DNA from: Mobula hypostoma
Lineage: Eukaryota
DNA: 64,000 bases
Reading direction: 5' to 3'
Assembly (NCBI RefSeq): GCF_963921235.1
Contig: NC_086108.1
Span: 48,982,001-49,046,000 of the forward strand
The translations under genes and the position numbers were made by a program. A model generated the notes under the pieces. That model was not told the origin of the DNA. It did no database searches and worked only from the letters and a program-made list of their open reading frames with translations. Below are positions 20,108 through 58,740 of this stretch, piece by piece; within the stretch, counting starts at the first letter, position 1, and the number at the start of each line of letters is the position of its first letter.

Positions 20108-22570
20108 TAAATTGTGATCACTGGTTCCTAAGGGTTTCTTTACCTTAAGCTCCCTAATCGCCTCTGGTGCATTACATAACACCCAGTCCAGTATAGCTGA
20201 ACCCCTAGTAGGCTCAATGACAAACTGCTCTAAAAAGCCATCTCTTAGACATTCAACAAACTCACTCTCTTGAGATCCATTACCAACTTGATTTTCCCAA
20301 TCGACCTGCATGTTAAAATCTCTCATGACTACCATAACATTGCCCTTTTGACATGTCTTTTCTATTTCCTGTTGTAATCTGTGGTTCACCTCCCAGCTAC
20401 TGTTGAGAGGCCTGTATATTACTGCCATCAGGGTCCTTTTACCCTTGCAGTTTCTTAACTCAACCCTCAAGGATTCAACATCTTCCGATCCTGTGTCACA
20501 TCTTCCTACTGATTTGATGCCATTCCTTACCAGTAGAGCCACACCACCCCCTCTGCCTATCTTCCTATCCCTCTGATATAATGTGTAACCTTGGACATTC
20601 CCAACTGCAACCATCCTTCAGCCACAATTCAGTGATAGCTGCAACATCATACCTGGCAATCTGTAGTGCAACCAGATCATCCACCTTATTTCTTATACGA
20701 TGCACATTTAGATACAACACCTTGAGTTGTATTTGCTATCCTTTCTGATTCTGCTTCCCTAATGATTTGATACTCAGCCTGTTAGCTGCAGCTAAGTCTC
20801 ATCACCTGCCTGCTCTACCTGGCAGTCTGCATGCTACCTTTACTTTTTTACCATCTGCCCTATCCTGAGTCCCTTCGCTCCAGTTCCTACTCTCCTGCCA
20901 AATTAGTTTAAATCCTTGCCAACAGGTCTAACAAACCTGCCCGCAAGAATATTGGTCCCCCTCGGCTTCAGGTGCAACTCGTCACTTTTGAACAGGTCAA
21001 ATCTCCCCCAGAAGAGATCCCAATGATCCAAGAACCTGAAACCCTGCCCCCTGCAACAGCTTCTCAGCCACGCATTTATTTGCCAAATATTCGGTTTCTA
21101 CTCATGGTCATAGTCATACTTTATTGATCCCGGGGGAAATTGGTTTTCATTACAGTTGCACCATAAATAATAAATAGTAATAAAATCATAAATAGTTAAA
21201 TAGTAATATGTAAATTATGCCAGAAATAAGTCCAGGACCAGCCTATTGGCTCAGGGTGTCTGACTCTCCAAGGGAGGAGTTGTAAAGTTTGATGGCCACA
21301 GGCAGGAATGACTTCCTATGACGTTCTGTGTTGCATCTCGGTGGAATGAGTCTCTGGCTGAATGTACTGCTGTGCACAACCAGTACATTATGTAGTGGAT
21401 GGGAGACATTGTCCAAGATGGCATGCAACTTGGACAGCATCCTTTTTTGAGACACCACCGTGAGAGAGTCCAGTTCCATCCCCACAACATCACTGGCCTT
21501 ACGAATGAGTTTGTTGATTCTGTTGGTGTCTGCTACCCTCAGCGTGCTGCCCCAACACACAACAGCAAACATGATCGCACTGGCCACCACAGACTCGTAG
21601 AACATCCTCAGCATCGTCCGGCAGATGTTAAAAGACGTCAGTCTCCTCAAAAATAGACGGCTCTGACCCTTCTTGTAGACAGCCTCAGTGTTCTTAGACC
21701 AGTCCATTTTATTGTCAATTCGTATCCCCAGGTATTTGTAATCCTCCACCATGTCCACCCTGACCTCCTGGATGGAAACAGGGGTCACCAGTACCTTAGC
21801 TCTCCTCAGGTCTACCACCAGCTCCTTAGTCTTTTTTACATTAAGCTGCAGATAATTCTGCTCACACCATGTGACAAAGTTTCCTACCGTAGCCCTGCCT
21901 CGTGCCACAGGCAGCAATCTGGAAATTACTACCCAGGAGGTCCTGTTCCTCAGCCTTCAACCTAGCTCTCTAAGTTCTCTTTTCAGGACCTCTTTGCTTT
22001 TCCTTCCTATGTCATTGGTACCAAATGCTACCCTTCCCTCTCCCAAAATGTTGCGGATGCGATCTGACATGTCCCTGACCCTGGTGCCTAGGAGGCAACA
22101 TGCCATCTGGGTGTCCACAGAATCTCCTGTCTGTTTCCCTCACTATTGAGTCCCCTGTCACTGTCGCTCCCATCTTCTCTCTTTTTCCCTTCTGCACCAT
22201 GGACCCATGCTCAGTGCCTGTAACCCAGTCGTCATGGCATTCTTCTGGGAGGTCATACCCCACAAAAGTATCCAAAGCGGTATACTATTGAGGGGAATGG
22301 CCACAGATGTGCTCTGCTCTAATTGCCTATTTCCATTTCTCCTGACAGTCATCCAGCTATGCGCTTCCTGCAACTTCAGGGTGACTACTTCCCTGTAGCT
22401 TTGATCAATTACTCCTTGCTCTCCTGTACAAGTCAAAGGTCATCCAGTTGCTGCTCCAGATCCCTAACACGTTCTTCAAGGAGCTGCAGCCGGATGCACT
22501 TTACGCAGATGTAGTTCACTGGGAGACTCTGGGTCTCACAGTTCTCTAACATCCGGCAGAAGAACACACC
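20108..22570 (-). mobile_element. CR1 5' portion (ORF1 zinc finger/esterase and endonuclease), interrupted by a Rex1 insertion
   Basis: YICVKC..LLEERVRDLEQQLDDL, VTGDSIVR, GTNILAGRF..DLN* and endonuclease motifs GGGVALLVR..IYRP..DFN..SDHN. Confidence 0.85.
21103..21896 (-). mobile_element. 5'-truncated Rex1/Babar-type LINE nested in CR1 ORF1
   Basis: ORF 21243-21917 LNVKKTKELVVDLRR..YKYLG..FYESVVASAIMFAVVCWG..HPLH..SFLPVAIKLYN; 3' end aataaagtatgactatgacc. Confidence 0.85.
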
Positions 22571-40042: not shown

Positions 40043-40089
40043 GAAGGTTTAAACTAATCTGGCAGAGGGATGAGGACTGGAATGAAGGG

Positions 40090-51505: not shown

Positions 51506-51822
51506 GAAGAAGGAGTCTGAGAGTCTGAGTGGGAGTGCCGAGAAAGATATTTTTGAAATTTTCGTTTTTTTTTCTCCAACGGCGTTCTGAGAGGCGGGAC
51601 TGCGCAGGCATGTGACGTCGGGCAGTGCAGCGCGGCAGATTTAAAAGGGCAGAAATCCTGCTTCAGGTTTGATTCGAAGAAGGAGTCTGAGAGTCTGAGT
51701 GGGAGTGCCGAGAAAGATATTTTTGAAATTTTCGTTATTTTTTTTTCTCCAACAGCGTTCTGAGAGGCGGGACTGCTCAGGCATGTGACGTCGGGCTGTG
51801 CAGCGCGGCAGATTTAAAAGGA
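51506..51822 (+). promoter_or_regulatory. Tandem 170-bp CpG-rich CR1 5' monomers (putative Pol II promoter)
   Basis: Units start at 51506 and 51676; each has GAGGCGGGAC, TGACGTCG and GATTTAAAAG. Confidence 0.7.
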
Positions 51823-51983
51823 ACAGAGCCTCATAGAGCGGGCAGCGTAGTTTGCGGGCGGCGGAGTGAGCCGGGAGCAGAGTGAAGGCTTAAGGGCTTC
51901 GGCTCAACGGGCTTAGGCAAAAACGGGCGAGGCGAGGAAGGTTTGGCATTCATTTTCTGTTGCTATTTGAGGAGAGGGGCAGT

Positions 51984-52919
51984 ATGAGTGTGAGGGCAGT
52001 TTGCTGTTCTCGGTGTCGGATGTGGGAGGCCCTGGAGTCTCCAAGCCTCCCGGACGTCTACATCTGCGCCAAGTGCATCGAGATGCAGCTCCTAAGGGAC
52101 CGCGTTACGGAACTGGAGCTGCAGCTCGATGACCTTCGTCTGGTCAGGGAGAGTGAGGAGGTGATAGAGAGGAGTTGCAGGCAGGTGGTCACGCCGGGGC
52201 CACGGGAGGCAGACAAGTGGGTCACAGTTAGGAGGGGGAAGGGGAAGAGTCAGGTAATAGGGAGTACCCCGGTGGCTGTGCCCCTTAACAATAGGTACTC
52301 CTGTTTGAGTACTGTTGGGAGGGACAGCTTACCCGGGGGAAGCGACAGTGGCCGTGCCTCCAGCACAGAGTCTGGCCCTGTAGCTCAGAAGGGTAGGGCA
52401 AGGAAGAGGAGGGCAATTGTGATAGGGGACTCGATAGTAAGGGGGTCAGACAGGCGATTCTGTGGACGCAGTCCAGAGACCCGGATGGTAGCTTGGTTCC
52501 CTGGTGCCAGGGTCCGGGATATTTCTGATCATGTCCAAGATATCCTGAAGTGGGAGGGTGAGGAGCCAGAGGTCGTGGTACATATAGGTACCAATGACAT
52601 AGGTAGGAAAAGGGATGAGGTCCTGAAAGGAGAATATAGGGAGCTAGGAAGGGAGTTGAGAAAAAGGACCGCAAAGGTAGTAATCTCGGGATTACTGCCT
52701 GTGCCACGCGACAGTGAGAGTAGGAATGCGATGAGGTGGAGGATAAATGTGTGGCTGAGGGATTGGAGCAGGGGGCAGGGATTCAAGTTTTTGGATCATT
52801 GGGACCTCTTTTGGCGCAGGCGTGACCCGTACAAAAAGGACGGGTTACACTTAAATCCTAGGGGGACCAATATCCTGGCAGGGAGATTAGCGAGGGCTAC
52901 TGAGGTGACTTTAAATTAG
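51984..52919 (+). CDS. CR1 ORF1p: C-x2-C zinc finger, coiled coil and SGNH esterase-like domain (intact)
   Basis: CSRC..CAKC, LRDRVTELELQLDDL, IGDSIVR, HIGTND, DGLH; first ATG at 51984. Confidence 0.9.
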   Translation: MSVRAVCCSRCRMWEALESPSLPDVYICAKCIEMQLLRDRVTELELQLDDLRLVRESEEVIERSCRQVVTPGPREADKWVTVRRGKGKSQVIGSTPVAVPLNNRYSCLSTVGRDSLPGGSDSGRASSTESGPVAQKGRARKRRAIVIGDSIVRGSDRRFCGRSPETRMVAWFPGARVRDISDHVQDILKWEGEEPEVVVHIGTNDIGRKRDEVLKGEYRELGRELRKRTAKVVISGLLPVPRDSESRNAMRWRINVWLRDWSRGQGFKFLDHWDLFWRRRDPYKKDGLHLNPRGTNILAGRLARATEVTLN

Positions 52920-55900
52920 AATGGTTGGGGGGCGGGAATCAAATTAAAGAGGCTAGGCGTGAGGAGGTTAGTTCACAACAGGGGGATGGGAACCAGTGCA
53001 GAGAGACAGAGGGGTGTAAAGTGAGGGTAGAAGCAAAAAGTACTAAGGAGAAAAGTAAAAGTGGCAGGCCGACAAATCCAGGGCAAGCATTAAAAAGGGC
53101 CACTTTTCAACATAATTGTATAAGGGCTAAGAGAGTTGTAAAAGAGCGCCTGAAGGCTTTGTGTGTCAATGCAAGGAGTATTCGTAATAAGGTGGATGAA
53201 TTGAAAGTGCAGATTGTTATTAATGATTATGATATAGTTGGGATCACAGAGACATGGCTCCAGGGTGACCAAGGATGGGAGCTCAATGTTCAGGGATATT
53301 CAATATTCAGGAGGGATAGACATGAAGGAAGGGGAGGTGGGGTGGCGTTGCTGGTTAAGAGATTAACGCAATAGAAAGGAAGGGCATAAGCCGGGAAGAT
53401 GTGGAATCGATATGGGTAGAGCTGCGTAACACTAAGGGGCAGTAGACGCTGGTGGGAGTTGTGTACAGGCCACCTAACAGTAGTAGTGAAGTCGGAGATG
53501 GTATTAAACAGGAAATTAGAAATGTGTGCAATAAAGGAACAGCAGTTATAATGGGTGACTTCAATCTACATGTAGATTGGGTGAACCAAATTGGTAAAGG
53601 TGCTGAGGAAGAGGATGTCTTGGAATGTATGCGGGATAGTTTTTTGAACCAACATGTCAAGGAACCAACTAGAGAGCAGGCTATTCTGGACTGGGTTTTG
53701 AGCAATGAGGAAGGGTTAATTAGCAATCTTGTCGTGAGAGGCCCCTTGGGTAAGAGTGACCATAATATGGTGGAATTCTTCATTAAGATGGAGAGTGACA
53801 TAGTTAATTCAGAAACAAAGGTTCTGAACTTAAAAAGGGGTAACTTTGAAGGTATGAGACGTGAATTAGCTAAGATAGACTAGCAAATGACACTTAAAGG
53901 ATTGACGGTGGATATGCAATGGCAAGCATTTAAAGGTTGCATGGATGAACTACAACAATTGTTCATCCCAGTTTGGCAAAAGAATAAATCAAGGAAGGTA
54001 GTGCACCCGTGGCTGACAAGAGAAATTAGGGATAGTATCAATTCCAAAGAAGAAGCATACAAATTAGCCAGAGAAAGTGGCTCACCTGAGGACTGGGAGA
54101 AATTCAGAGTTCAGCAGAGGAGGACAAAGGGCTTAATTAGGAAGGGGAAAAAAGATTATGAGAGAAAACTGGCAGAGAACATAAAAACGGACTGTAAAAG
54201 CTTTTATAGCTATGTAAAAAGGAAAAGACTGGTGAAGACAAATGTAGGTTCCCTACAGACAGAAACAGGTGAATTGATTATGGGGAGCAAGGACATGGCT
54301 GACCAATTGAATAATTACTTTAGTTCTGTCTTCACTAAGGAGGACATAAATAATCTTCCAGAAATAGTAGGGACAGAGGGTCCAGTGAGATGGAGGAACT
54401 GAGTGAAATACTTGTTAGTAGGGAAGTGGTGTTAGGTAAATTGAAGGGATTGAAGGCAGATAAATCCCCAGGGCCAGATGGTCTGCATCCTAGAGTGCTT
54501 AAGGAAGTAGCCCAAGAAATAGTGGATGCATTAGTGATAATTTTTCAAAACTCATTAAGATTCTGGACTAGTTCCTGAGGATTGGAGGGTGGCTAATGTA
54601 ACCCCACTTTTTAAAAAAGGAGGGAGAGAGAAACCGGGGAATTATAGACCGGTTAGCCTAACGTCGGTGGTGGGGAAACTGCTGGAGTCAGTTATCAAAG
54701 ATGTGATAACAGCACATTTGGAAAGCGGTGAAATCATCGGACAAAGTCAGCATGGATTTGTGAAAGGAAAATCATGTCTGACGAATCTCATAGAATTTTT
54801 TGAGGATGTAACCAGTAGAGTGGATAGGGGAGAACCAGTGGATGTGGTATATTTGGATTTTCAAAAGGCTTTTGACAAGGTCCCACACAGGAGATTAGTG
54901 TGCAAACTTAAAGCACACGGTATTGGGGGTAAGGTATTGATGTGGATGGAGAATTGGTTAGCAGACAGGAAGCAAAGAGTGGGAATAAACGGGACCTTTT
55001 CAGAATGGCAGGCGGTGACTAGTGGGGTACCGCAAGGCTCAGTGCTGGGACCCCAGTTGTTTACAATATATATTAATGACTTGGATGAGGGAATTAAATG
55101 CAGCATCTCCAAGTTTGCGGATGACACGAAGCTGGATGGCAGTGTTAGCTGTGAGGAGGATGCTAAGAGGATGCAGAGTGACTTGGATAGGTTGGGTGAG
55201 TGGGCAAATTCATGGCAGATGCAATTTAATGTGGATAAATGTGAAGTTATCCACTTTGGTGGCAAAAATAGGAAAACAGATTATTATCTGAATGGTGGCC
55301 AATTAGGAAAAGGGGAGGTGCAACGAGACCTGGGTGTCATTATAAACCAGTCATTGAAAGTGGGCATGCAGGTACAGCAGGTGGTGAAAAAGGCGAATGG
55401 TATGCTGGCATTTATAGCGAGAGGATTCGAGTACAGGAGCAGGGAGGTACTACTGCAGTTGTACAAGGCCTTGGTGAGACCACACCTGGAGTATTGTGTG
55501 CAGTTTTGGTCCCCTAATCTGAGGAAGGACATCCTTGCCATAGAGGGAGTACAAAGAAGGTTCACCAGATTGATTCCTGGGATGGCAGGACTTTAATATG
55601 ATGAAAGACTGGATCGACTAGGCTTATATTTGTCAGAATTTAGAAGATTGAGGGGGGATCTTATTGAAACGTATAAAATCCTAAAGGGATTGGACAGGCT
55701 AGATGCAGGAAGATTGTTCCCGATGTCGGGGAAGTCCAGAACGAGGGGTCACAGTTTGAGGATAAAGGGGAAGCCTTTTAGGACCGAGATTAGGAAAAAC
55801 TTCTTCACACAGAGAGTGGTGAATCTGTGGAATTCTCTGCCACAAACAGTTGAGGCCAGTTCATTGGCTATATTTAAGAGGGAGTTAGATATGGCCCTTG

Positions 55901-55950
55901 TGGCTACGGGGATCAGGGGGTATGGAGGGAAGGCTGGGGCGGGGTTCTGA
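52904..55950 (+). pseudogene. CR1 ORF2 (endonuclease and RT), disrupted
   Basis: Compared with the intact 44288-47067 copy: frameshifts near 53358, 54370 and 54557, and stops at 53443, 53881 and 55594. Confidence 0.9.
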
Positions 55951-56040
55951 GTTGGATGATCAGCCATGATCATAATAAATGGCGGTGCAGGCTCGAAGGG
56001 CCGAATGGCCTACTCCTGAACCTATTTTCTATGTTTCTAT

Positions 56041-58740
56041 CCTTTTTCAGATAATGAGTTCAAAGCAGCTCACAATACTCTTAGTGAGGCCTCACCAGTG
56101 CCTTAAAAGCCTTAACATTATATTCTGACTTCATATTTTAGTCCTCTCAAAATGAACACTAACATTGCATTTGGCTTCCTCCCCACCGACTCAACCTGCA
56201 ATTAACCTTTAGGGAATCCTGTACGAGGACTCCCAAGTCCCAAGCCCCTTTGCACCTCAGATTTTTGAATTTCCTCTTCATTTAGAAAATAGTCTACGCT
56301 TTTATTTCTTCTAATGAAGTGCATGACCATACACTTTCCTGACACTATATTCCTTCTGCCACTTCTTTGCCTATTCTCCTAATCTGTTTAAGTCTTTCTG
56401 CAACTTCTCCACTTCCTCAACACTACCTGCTCCTCCACCTATCTCTGTTCGGTCTGCAAACTTGGCCATAAAGCTATCTATTCCACCATCCAATCATTTA
56501 TAGGGTTAAAAAAAAGCAGTCCAAATACAGACCCCTGTGAAATACCACTGGTCATCAACAACCAAACAGAAAAGCCTGCATTTTTTTTCCCACTCTTTGC
56601 CTTCTGCCAATCAACCAAAGCCTCTATCCATGCTGGTATCTTTCCTGTAATACCATGGGCTCTTAACTTGTTCAGCAGCCACGTGTGTCACACTTTGTCA
56701 AAGGCCTTTTGAAAATCCAAGTACACAACATCCACCAATTCTCCTTTGTCTACTCTGCTTGTTATTTCTTCAAAGAATTCCAACAGATTTATCAGGCAAT
56801 ATTTTCCTTTAATGAAACCATGCTGACTTCAGCCTATTTTAGCATGTGCATCCAAGTACCTTGAAACTACATCCTTAACAATCGACTCTAACATCTTCCC
56901 TCTACAGGAGGCCAGGCTAACTGACCTATAAGTACCTTTCTTCTGCCTCTCACCTTTCCTGAAGAGTGGAGTGACATTTGTAACTTTCCAGTTTTCTAGA
57001 ACCGTGCCAGAATCTATCGATTCTTGCAAGATCATTACCAACTCCTTCACAATCTCTTCAGAAACCTCTTTCAGAACCCTGGGGCGAGGAACATTTGGTC
57101 CAGGTGACTTTTCTACCCTCAGACCTTTTAATATCCAAGCGCCTTCTCTCTAGTAATGGCAACTTCACTCACCTCTGCCCCCTGACACTCTTGAACTTCT
57201 AGCATCTTGCACAAGATTGTCTTCCCATTTAGTCACATCCTCAAAAAATCAATCAGGCTCATAAGGCACGACCTGTCCTTCACAAAGCCATGCTGACCAT
57301 TCCTAATCATATTATGCCTCTCCAAATGTTCATAAGTCCTGCCTCTCAGGATCTTCTCCATCAACTTAACAACCACTGAAGTAAGACTCACTAGCCTCTA
57401 ATTTCCTGGGCTACCTCTACTCTCTTTCTTGAATAATGGAACAGCATCTGCAACTCTCCAATCCTCTGGAACCTCTTCCGACCCCATTGATGATGCAAAG
57501 ATCATTGCCAGAGGCTCAGCAATCTCCTCCCTGCCTCCCACAGTAGCCTGGAGTACATCTCATCTAGTCCCAGTGACATATCCAACTTATGCTTTCCAAA
57601 AGCTCCAGCACATACTCTTCCTACATGCTCAAGCTTTTCAGTCCACTGTAAGTCATCCCTACAATCGCCAAGATCCTTTTCCGTAGTGAATATTGAAGCA
57701 AAGTACTCATTAATTGCCTCTGCTATCTCCTCCGGTTCCATACACACTTTTCCACTGTCACACTTGATTGGTCCTATTCTCTCACGTCTTATCCTCTTGC
57801 TCTTCACATACTTGTAGAATGTCTTGAGGTTTTCCTTAATCCTGTCCGCCAAGGCCTTCTCATGGCCCCTGCTGGCTCTCCTAATTTCTTTCTTAAGCTC
57901 CTTCTGCATCTCTATCATATTACTTAGTTTTTTGAATCTTTCATAAGCTCTTCTTTTCTTCTTGACTAGATTTACAACAGCCTTTGTACACCATGGTTCC
58001 TGTACCCTACCATCCTTTCCCTGTCTCATTGGAATGTACCAATGCAAAACAACTGCCCCATCCTCAGCCCTATCAATCCAGTTGCCATGCACCCCCCCCC
58101 CCCCCACCGGCCAAAATCTGTTTAAACTTTCCTGAACAGTTTAGCAAACTTGCATGCAAGGATATTGGGCCCGTCGGGTTCAGGTGTAACCCACCCTTTT
58201 GTACAGGACATATCTTCCCCAGAAGAGATCCCACTGGTTCAGAAATCTGAAAAACTGCATTCATCTGCCAAATCATCCTATTCTTACCCTCACTGGTGTG
58301 TGGCACAGGCAGCAATCCAGAGATTACTACCCTAGAGCTCCTGTTTTTCACTTTCAGCCAAGCTCCCTGAAATCTTTCTTCAGGACCTCTTCACCTTTCC
58401 TACCTATGTCATTGGTGCCAATATGTACCAAGAATTCTGGTGTTTCACCCTCCCCATTTCAAATGTGTGAACTCAATCCAAGACAACCCTGATCCTGGCA
58501 CCTGAGAGCAACATAGCATAAGTGTGCCTATCTCGTTGAAAGAATTTCGTCTCTAATCCTCTAACTATTGTATTTACTATCACTACTGTAGCCCTCTTTA
58601 CCTCTCTTCTCTTCTGAGCCACAGCACTAGACTCAGTGCCAGAGACCTTGTTGCTACGGCTCCCCTCTGTAAGTTGTCCCCCTCAACAGTATCCAAAGTG
58701 GTACACTTATTATTGATAGGAATGGCCACAGTGGTACTCT
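56041..58740 (-). mobile_element. Cluster of decayed CR1 fragments (ORF2 pieces 56041-58045, ORF1 piece about 58070-58740)
   Basis: RT-region ORF remnants and ORF1 esterase motifs VVISGLLPVP, GGLHLNP. Confidence 0.8.

Follow-up and report, generated by a model that had tools for sequence, protein, structure and literature searches.

Tandem slippage at a heptanucleotide is a textbook mechanism of −1 ribosomal frameshifting, known for the gag-pol genes of many long terminal repeat (LTR) retroelements. The heptamer U_UUA_AAC is the shift site between open reading frames (ORFs) 1a and 1b of coronaviruses and is also used at the pro-pol junction of some retroviruses. How the second protein of long interspersed nuclear elements (LINEs) is synthesized is a long-standing question, which has been partly answered for L1 and SART1 only. 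In birds, reptiles, sharks, and many fishes, the CR1 group is the main kind of LINE, and our literature searches encountered no mechanism put forward for its ORF2. In this study, we analyzed the ORF1/ORF2 junction of a CR1-group LINE in a 64,000-nucleotide (nt) stretch of the Mobula hypostoma genome (contig NC_086108.1, positions 48,982,001 to 49,046,000; hereafter the window, numbered from its first letter). ORF1 of this element ends on a slippery heptamer that is directly followed by a stop codon, and ORF2 continues in the −1 frame. We propose programmed −1 frameshifting at this heptamer as the most likely route to ORF2, giving an ORF1-ORF2 fusion, and comparison among distant relatives leads us to give this reading a probability of roughly 0.6.

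In the survey of animal retroelements as presented in the available part of the review by Atkins et al. (2016, PMC5009743), pol lies in the −1 frame in 28 of 51 elements, many of them with classical heptanucleotides. HeT-A, TART, and L1 are the only non-LTR elements named in the same part of that review. A 2026 survey of the vertebrate CR1 group (PMC13343379) makes, in its accessible text, no mention of frameshift, overlap, slippery, reinitiation, or start codon. The first-pass annotation of this DNA had remarked that a proposal of frameshifting might already exist for other CR1s. This remark gained no support: full-text searches found no paper proposing a slippery site or frameshift at the CR1 ORF1/ORF2 junction, with the older chicken and turtle CR1 papers and Kapitonov & Jurka 2003 lying outside their reach.

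Structure of the element and its ORF1/ORF2 junction

The features of the window copy on which the argument rests are as follows.

51984..52919, forward strand: ORF1, 311 codons plus TAG, ending Leu-Asn-stop
52901..52903, forward strand: TGA closing the −1 frame, two codons upstream of the heptamer
52904..55950, forward strand: ORF2, starting in −1 relative to ORF1; broken in the window copy
52910..52916, forward strand: slippery heptamer T_TTA_AAT in the X_XXY_YYZ register of ORF1; the commonest family state is T_TTA_AAC
52917..52919, forward strand: ORF1 stop TAG, directly abutting the heptamer
52921..52947, forward strand: short ATG ORF (ATG, 7 codons, and TAA), in the frame of neither ORF1 nor ORF2
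52923..52938, forward strand: G-rich tract GG TT GGGGGG C GGG AA, with a G6 run that begins 11 nt past the heptamer; candidate 3′ stimulator

The terminus of ORF1 reads ACT TTA AAT TAG, and the heptamer stands in slippery register immediately before the stop codon, as the first-pass annotation had described. Its further observations that the −1 frame is open from 52904 and that the ATG at 52921 belongs to another frame and meets a stop after 8 codons also agree with the sequence. The TGA at 52901-52903 closes the −1 frame upstream and therefore confines entry from ORF1 into ORF2 to 52904-52916. The resulting overlap of the two ORFs is a window of 13 nt in the main family, i.e., the family of the window copy.

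In the ORF listing of the window copy, frame 0 of ORF1 is open over 51894..52919, with a Met at 51984. The N-terminus of ORF1 contains cysteine pairs of the form CxxC...CxxC, which are kept across an alignment of 17 sequences of relatives, as is the last Asn. Residues 146-294 match the Pfam domain Lipase_GDSL_2 with an expect value (E) of 2.4e-16, indicating an esterase domain of the GDSL/SGNH type. The downstream pieces of ORF2 match Exo_endo_phos, Exo_endo_phos_2, and RVT_1 (E 2.5e-34), and their order is an apurinic-type endonuclease followed by a reverse transcriptase (RT). Because of these ORF1 esterase and ORF2 endonuclease/RT matches, the element is assigned by domain content to the CR1-group LINEs with an esterase-type ORF1 (CR1/L2). 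According to the accessible text of the vertebrate survey (PMC13343379), the esterase type is the sole identifiable ORF1 type in vertebrate CR1 and L2. The nearest named relatives of ORF1 are uncharacterised proteins from sawshark, turtle, snake, lizard, and swallow.

The first-pass annotation had called the window copy full-length. Its ORF2 is nevertheless disrupted, with a shift of frame somewhere between 53374 and 53446 as well as stops in frame. The first −1 piece, 52904..53374, encodes 156 amino acids without a Met.

The bare pattern TTTAAAYTAR has three occurrences in the window, where 1.53 would be expected, and a count of at least three is obtained in 25 of 100 shuffles. The raw motif count, which is not above chance in 64 kb, was dropped as an argument; the significance of the heptamer rests on its register, position, and conservation.

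Recent amplification of the main family

A 401-base query covering the junction was searched against the 3.48-Gb assembly. It gave 1365 first-look candidates, and the 40 that were scored are all 97-100% identical; the counts given here for the main family are from 30 loci, including the window copy. Judged by this identity, the family is very young and recently amplified.

The −1 frame is closed two codons upstream of the heptamer in 29 of the 30 copies. In nine copies it has no stop from the heptamer up to the locus end, a distance of at least 563 codons. The first in-frame Met of ORF2 lies at codon 206-215 in eight of these nine, whereas the ninth carries a Met of its own at codon 37. The Met at codon 206-215 is located in the ...IMGDFN... 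motif, well past two endonuclease motifs, ...CVNARS... and ...ITETW.... A usable AUG for ORF2 is lacking in the young family, and on this evidence its recent amplification took place without one.

The heptamer is TTTAAAC in 21 copies, TTTAAAT in eight, including the window copy, and CTTAAAC in one. TTTAAAT may be a subfamily variant, because eight of 30 exceeds the single-site decay expected at ~2% divergence. AAT and AAC are both Asn codons, and both are compatible with a slippery site. TTTAAAT had been put forward as the heptamer of this CR1, which is correct for the window copy and not for the family, whose norm is TTTAAAC. The TTTAAAT copies are loci L001, L003, L006, L017, L018, L021, L028, and L029.

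ORF2 might instead acquire a start codon through slippage in the G6 run at 52927-52932, either during transcription or between copies. A deletion of one G there would place the ATG at 52921 in the ORF2 frame, as the first-pass annotation had pointed out. The run has six G in 27 copies, seven in one, and eight in one, and the remaining copy has a G-to-T substitution that leaves the length unchanged. A run shortened by one base is found in none of the 30 copies, so that the family majority leaves the ATG at 52921 out of frame. Contigs of four other organisms show no deletion in the run either, and this ATG is absent from the other lineages described below. At the DNA level, slippage in the G-run is largely refuted, and we consider it barely credible as the source of ORF2.

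Related lineages in the genome

The window holds three further junctions of this kind.

20906..20912, reverse strand: GAT TTA AAC TAA, copy of an older family ("family A")
40048..40054, forward strand: GGT TTA AAC TAA, CR1 fragment of only ~50 nt
58120..58126, reverse strand: AGT TTA AAC with the stop lost (AGA), decayed copy with a long G-run downstream

The first-pass annotation had listed these as three divergent CR1 copies with TTTAAAC in the same place. The heptamers are where it put them, with the reservation that the second copy is a short fragment and the third lacks the stop.

Copies of family A, the lineage of the 20.9-kb window copy, are 86-88% identical to that copy. TTTAAAC is present in 27 of 30, in the register GGT TTA AAC TAA. 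Main-family and family A ORF1 are 55-69% identical, and the same codon is used at 317 of 513 sites with identical residues (40 of 74 for Leu). A Met of family A, at ORF2 codon 38, is situated ~115 nt past the ORF1 stop and upstream of the endonuclease domain (loci L031-L060). In the stretch from the heptamer to this Met, the −1 frame is open and has no frame-breaking indels relative to the lineage with the ORF1 ending ..REGLN.

Genome searches with three distant ORF1 proteins (P0023, P0076, and P0021) returned tens of thousands of candidates. Thirteen short junction stretches were taken by match coordinates alone, two from the main family and 11 from five further lineages, which are distinguished by their ORF1 endings: ..EALN, ..EDLN/EGLN, ..REGLN, ..RVCLN, and ..PVDLN. 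All 11 junctions of the further lineages read NNT TTA AAC and then, at once, TAA or TAG. Overall, NNT TTA AAC, a stop, and an ORF2 in −1 are present in all 16 further junctions taken from this genome. Within 30 codons past the heptamer, there is no stop in the −1 frame in any of 10 loci, whereas frames 0 and +1 have 1-5 and 2-6 stops, respectively. A lineage with the ORF1 ending QGN was not evident in the genome, where the matches of P0076 end short of its C-terminus.

A query around the decayed 58.1-kb copy (57920-58320, reverse strand) has many genome matches over its last 131 bases only (57920-58050), at 95-97% identity. The junction part of this copy has no close copies among the 40 best-scored genome matches. 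This copy may be a composite, or its family may usually be 5′-truncated there.

Conservation of the junction in distant relatives

A scan of public metagenome contigs with an ORF1 profile identified 33 loci. Of these, 17 were analyzed; in the remaining 16, the match stops far from the C-terminus of ORF1 or the locus is cut at the match. Four of the 17 run past the end of the sequence, six are decayed inside the esterase, and seven have a readable ORF1 end. Six of the seven readable junctions, which are on unrelated contigs and of which one is decayed, consist of NNT TTA AAC and a stop (TAG in five and TGA in one). ORF2 in the −1 frame is open for 831 codons in L105 and for 438 codons in L109, and the −1 ORF of L105 carries endonuclease and RT domains. 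The ORF1 of L105 is 32% identical to that of the window copy (55/174), and its ORF2 is 36% identical to that of the window family (189/524). At 32-36% protein identity, synonymous sites should be randomised. QGN-type junctions were not found among the metagenome matches, which include LN-type junctions and one TGA-type junction only, and a metagenome contig scan with P0157 gave no match.

In the 13 tabulated junctions, the heptamer is invariant and the stop abuts it directly in all 13 (TAA in five, TAG in seven, and TGA in one). A stop likewise abuts the heptamer at the in-genome loci L134-L136. The codon preceding Leu is ACT, GGT, GCT, GAT, TGT, or TCT, which represents six amino acids (T, G, A, D, C, and S), and its third base is always T, the opposite of what coding sequences normally show. 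For comparison, the third base is T in 70 of 341 codons of the family ORF1, and TTA accounts for six of 35 Leu codons. Conservation therefore operates at the nucleotide level rather than the protein level, because the preceding residue varies while its third base is fixed and the TTA and AAC codons are kept. The first-pass annotation had raised the possibility that the Leu-Asn codons vary synonymously across families; apart from AAT in the window family, they are invariant (TTA AAC) across the lineages.

In contigs of four other organisms, position 52916 reads C in ~100% of the depth, and apart from this T-to-C difference no variant of at least 10% is present in 52907-52932, although variants do occur in the flanks. 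A single contig has an additional G, and there is no other indel.

These data bear on the possibility that ORF2 is translated by independent internal initiation, through an entry site or scanning, and that the Leu-Asn end is kept for a function of ORF1p or for a non-decoding function of the DNA or RNA. Such initiation would be in keeping with the in-frame Met of some lineages and with our finding no structured frameshift stimulator (see below). However, it does not account for a third base that is fixed while the residue varies, for TTA and AAC kept at 32-36% identity, or for a −1 frame that is free of stops from the heptamer in 10 of 10 loci, and the main family has no AUG ahead of the catalytic endonuclease residues. 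We regard internal initiation as highly improbable.

Conservation of the ORF1 C-terminus

When ORF1 served as the query of an exhaustive, profile-free search of protein databases, 2288 relatives were obtained at E ≤ 0.001. From the best 150, which were listed, we analyzed the C-termini of the 70 relatives whose end aligned within six residues of the query end. Asn is the last residue in 51 of the 70, with the endings LN (37), QGN (8), EN (3), SN (2), and KN (1); the remaining 19 end otherwise. The last residue is the most conserved among the final 30 right-aligned columns, and the last Asn is one of only ten invariant columns in the 17-sequence alignment. The named relatives ending in Leu-Asn are from sawshark, turtle, snake, monitor lizard, and swallow. 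The residue preceding Leu-Asn is highly variable, and in only one of 37 (a Glu) does it lack any T-ending codon.

The QGN, EN, and KN endings would fit the slippery sites G_GGA_AAC, G_GAA_AAC, and A_AAA_AAC, respectively, as predicted from the protein ends alone. The relatives with these endings are P0051, P0058, P0069, P0076, P0078, P0104, P0105, and P0115 for QGN; P0073, P0142, and P0149 for EN; and P0117 for KN. P0151, an 860-residue bird gene model, joins ORF1 to ORF2 through an invented intron. It was rejected as evidence on the junction because its join runs from the middle of the esterase to the middle of the endonuclease.

The stop codon and the terminal Asn raise the possibility of a stop-dependent, single-tRNA slippage, in which termination would be slow enough for tRNA-Asn in the P site to slip from AAC to AAA with the stop codon in the A site, and CUA or UUA would be read next. 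The same fusion protein would result, and only A_AAC and a stop would be needed. Several −1 sites of plant viruses have a stop directly past the heptamer. At our junctions, the stop directly follows AAC in each of the 13 tabulated cases, and the penultimate residues L, G, E, S, and K of the 51 relatives that end in Asn all have A-ending codons. This model would account for Asn-stop being the most strongly conserved feature. On the other hand, TTA and the preceding T, neither of which it needs, are just as fixed as AAC wherever the junction is known as DNA, and the QGN, EN, SN, and KN endings are known from protein only. We consider slippage of a single tRNA distinctly unlikely as an alternative to tandem slippage.

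The region downstream of the heptamer

Across six lineages, the conserved columns past the heptamer are limited to approximately the first 30 nt. They include a G-rich tract of the form GGGGGNNGGGRA, in which the main G-run begins ~10-11 nt past the heptamer. The tract is present at about the same distance in the in-genome lineages and in the metagenome junctions. In the ORF2 frame it encodes Gly-x-Gly-Asn/Asp, and the second Gly is GGG in 12 of 13 junctions, compared with 30-38% for the other Gly codons of ORF2. This bias hints at a constraint on the RNA.

The candidate stimulator could take the form of linear RNA or of a two-tetrad G-quadruplex. ViennaRNA with quadruplexes allowed predicts a G-quadruplex, 6 nt past the heptamer, in only three of seven lineages; for this reason, the G-quadruplex was rejected as a claimed stimulator. 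The available part of Atkins et al. (2016, PMC5009743) describes a minority of stimulators that start 12-15 nt downstream and work as linear RNA together with trans factors. By analogy, these linear stimulators appear to be the closest described counterpart of the G-tract.

Proposed mechanism and its assessment

In the proposed mechanism, UUA would occupy the P site and AAC or AAU the A site, and both tRNAs would slip back one base onto UUU and AAA. The ribosome would then read C/UUA GAA UGG ... in place of the UAG stop. A minority of ribosomes would thus produce an ORF1p-ORF2p fusion (...EVTLN-LEWLGGGN...), while the rest would terminate and release ORF1p alone. The outcome would be a low and fixed ORF2:ORF1 ratio, comparable to that set by retroviral gag-pol frameshifting. 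We infer that ribosomes shift at the heptamer in this way. The G-rich tract, the adjacent stop, or both would presumably raise the efficiency, and the fusion would be the active form of ORF2p.

Every computational test able to refute the frameshift reading came out in its favor, and the comparative tests likewise support the gag-pol-like fusion proposed in the first-pass annotation. The heptamer, the stop, and the G-rich tract are deeply conserved. The −1 frame is closed just upstream of the heptamer and open through ORF2. If the stop-dependent variant is counted in, −1 frameshifting of one form or the other appears quite probable from these comparisons.

Several observations weigh against this interpretation. 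The evidence is all comparative. The in-genome lineages are related to each other and are not independent samples, so that the main weight falls on the comparison with distant relatives. In family A, 10 of the 12 copies whose −1 frame stays open longest have an in-frame Met at ORF2 codon 38. In three of the six metagenome junctions (L103, L105, and L111), an ATG is located 5 nt past the stop, at ORF2 codon 4; the same position is GTG in L107 and TCG or nothing elsewhere. These lineages could therefore initiate or reinitiate conventionally. The first-pass annotation had described ORF2 as lacking an AUG, a description that stands for the main family and fails for family A and for these three junctions. 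In L101 (699-4313), ORF1 ends with ...TLRH TGA, and beyond this single TGA the frame is unchanged and runs on as an 831-codon ORF2 that encodes endonuclease and RT domains; the first Met of the downstream part is at codon 49. Not every member of the group therefore has the heptamer. ORF2 lies in −1 in the intact copies and in six of the seven readable metagenome junctions, and not in L101. Downstream of the heptamer, the G-rich tract also encodes G-x-G-N/D, and its conservation could accordingly be at the peptide level. No hairpin or pseudoknot was detected there: ViennaRNA folding energies over 40-160 nt were no better than those of shuffled sequences (z −0.15 to +0.94), no stem was common to seven per-lineage folds, RNAalifold on six lineages gave 0 pairs, and Rfam gave no match to the junction region at E up to 1. 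The patchy prediction of a quadruplex belongs with these points.

One alternative that would accommodate the in-frame ATGs is termination-coupled reinitiation, as proposed for human L1 ORF2, in which ribosomes that have terminated on ORF1 would restart in the −1 frame at a nearby AUG or non-AUG codon. The conserved cassette would then serve to retain the ribosome or to make it restart, and the product would be a free rather than a fused ORF2p. The ATG 5 nt past the stop in three metagenome junctions, the GTG in L107, and the codon-38 Met of family A all suit such a mechanism, and the stop abuts the motif in every lineage, as a termination-dependent process would explain. SART1 uses a UAAUG stop-start coupling. 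The restart signals of caliciviruses contain UGGGA, which is also present in most of the G-tracts here; known restart signals, however, lie upstream of the stop, whereas the G-tract lies downstream. L1 ORF2 is thought to use an AUG-independent initiation of unknown kind, a point for reinitiation made in the available part of Atkins et al. (2016, PMC5009743). Against reinitiation, the young family, the most successful one in this genome, has no in-frame AUG before ORF2 codon 206, and no near-cognate codon past the stop is conserved among the lineages (the aligned codon is TGG, TTG, TGC, AGT, ATG, GTG, or TCG). A restart codon within a few bases of the stop is found neither in the window family nor in the other in-genome lineages. 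Moreover, reinitiation needs neither the X_XXY_YYZ register, nor the third-base T, nor the TTA and AAC codons, nor a −1 frame open from the heptamer, all of which are conserved. We therefore consider reinitiation rather unlikely and prefer frameshifting.

The layout of L101 is of the stop-readthrough type, which we would expect to see if the common strategy of the group is an ORF1-ORF2 fusion made by recoding. More broadly, and with somewhat less than even confidence, we suggest that the CR1 group, whose LINEs dominate among the retrotransposons of many vertebrates, possesses an ancient recoding cassette composed of U_UUA_AAC, an abutting stop, ~7 variable bases, and a G-rich tract. This cassette might direct structure-independent −1 frameshifting, stimulated by the G-tract as linear RNA, by a G-quadruplex, or by a bound protein, for which ORF1p itself is a candidate, and the fusion might provide cis-preference and stoichiometry. 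Sister lineages might have swapped the heptamer (predicted to be G_GGA_AAC behind QGN and A_AAA_AAC behind KN) or might use readthrough of an in-frame stop. Such a split between frameshifting and readthrough would parallel that among retroviruses.

Frameshifting at this heptamer, if true, would provide a concrete mechanism for CR1 ORF2 that can be tested with a small reporter. CR1 ORF2p would be synthesized in fusion with ORF1p, with implications for cis-preference and for the assembly of the ribonucleoprotein. It would also represent a deeply conserved case of −1 frameshifting in vertebrate genomes with a stimulator other than a hairpin or pseudoknot. Annotation would benefit as well: at this junction, present gene predictors cut ORF2 short or introduce spurious introns (e.g., P0151).

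Other features of the window copy

The 5′ untranslated region of the window copy (51508-51810) contains two tandem units of ~130 bp (GAAGAAGGAGTCTGAGAG... to ...GCAGATTTAAAAGG), which look like the promoter monomers of some LINEs. CR1-type 3′ ends have a hairpin and short microsatellite-like repeats instead of poly(A). Read by eye, the 3′ end of the element, at ~55995-56041, has a short GGCCGAATGGCC palindrome with TTTCTATG-like repeats behind it, and it lacks a poly(A) tail.

Comparison with known systems

The CR1 junction shares with the canonical U_UUA_AAC systems the identical heptamer and register, a downstream ORF of polymerase type in the −1 frame without a start of its own, and a fixed, low ratio of the enzyme. 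It differs from them in that no pseudoknot or hairpin is detectable, the stop abuts the heptamer, and a G-tract lies ~10-11 nt downstream; the host, furthermore, is a non-LTR retrotransposon without a protease to cut the fusion. The abutting stop and the unstructured, G-rich 3′ element may be variant features of the mechanism.

With the gag-pol genes of animal LTR elements, the CR1 element has in common a two-ORF organization, a second ORF in −1, and a tandem-shift heptamer in the overlap. In contrast to those elements, it is a LINE that uses target-primed reverse transcription, its ORF1 is of the esterase type and not Gag, and the overlap comprises only 4-10 codons. The non-LTR retrotransposons TRE5-A and TRE3-A of Dictyostelium differ in belonging to another LINE lineage and another host.

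Protein-dependent frameshift sites with a distant 3′ element are known from arterivirus nsp2TF and cardiovirus 2A. The shared trait is a short, conserved, and apparently unstructured 3′ element, located here ~10-11 nt past the shift site. The element of CR1 is G-rich rather than C-rich or a stem-loop, and its putative role is suggested by its conservation.

Among LINEs, human L1 and SART1 resemble the CR1 element in making little ORF2p from a bicistronic RNA and in an ORF2 synthesis that is independent of its own AUG. L1 has a spacer between its ORFs and neither a slippery site nor a fusion, whereas the two ORFs of the CR1 element overlap in −1 at the heptamer.

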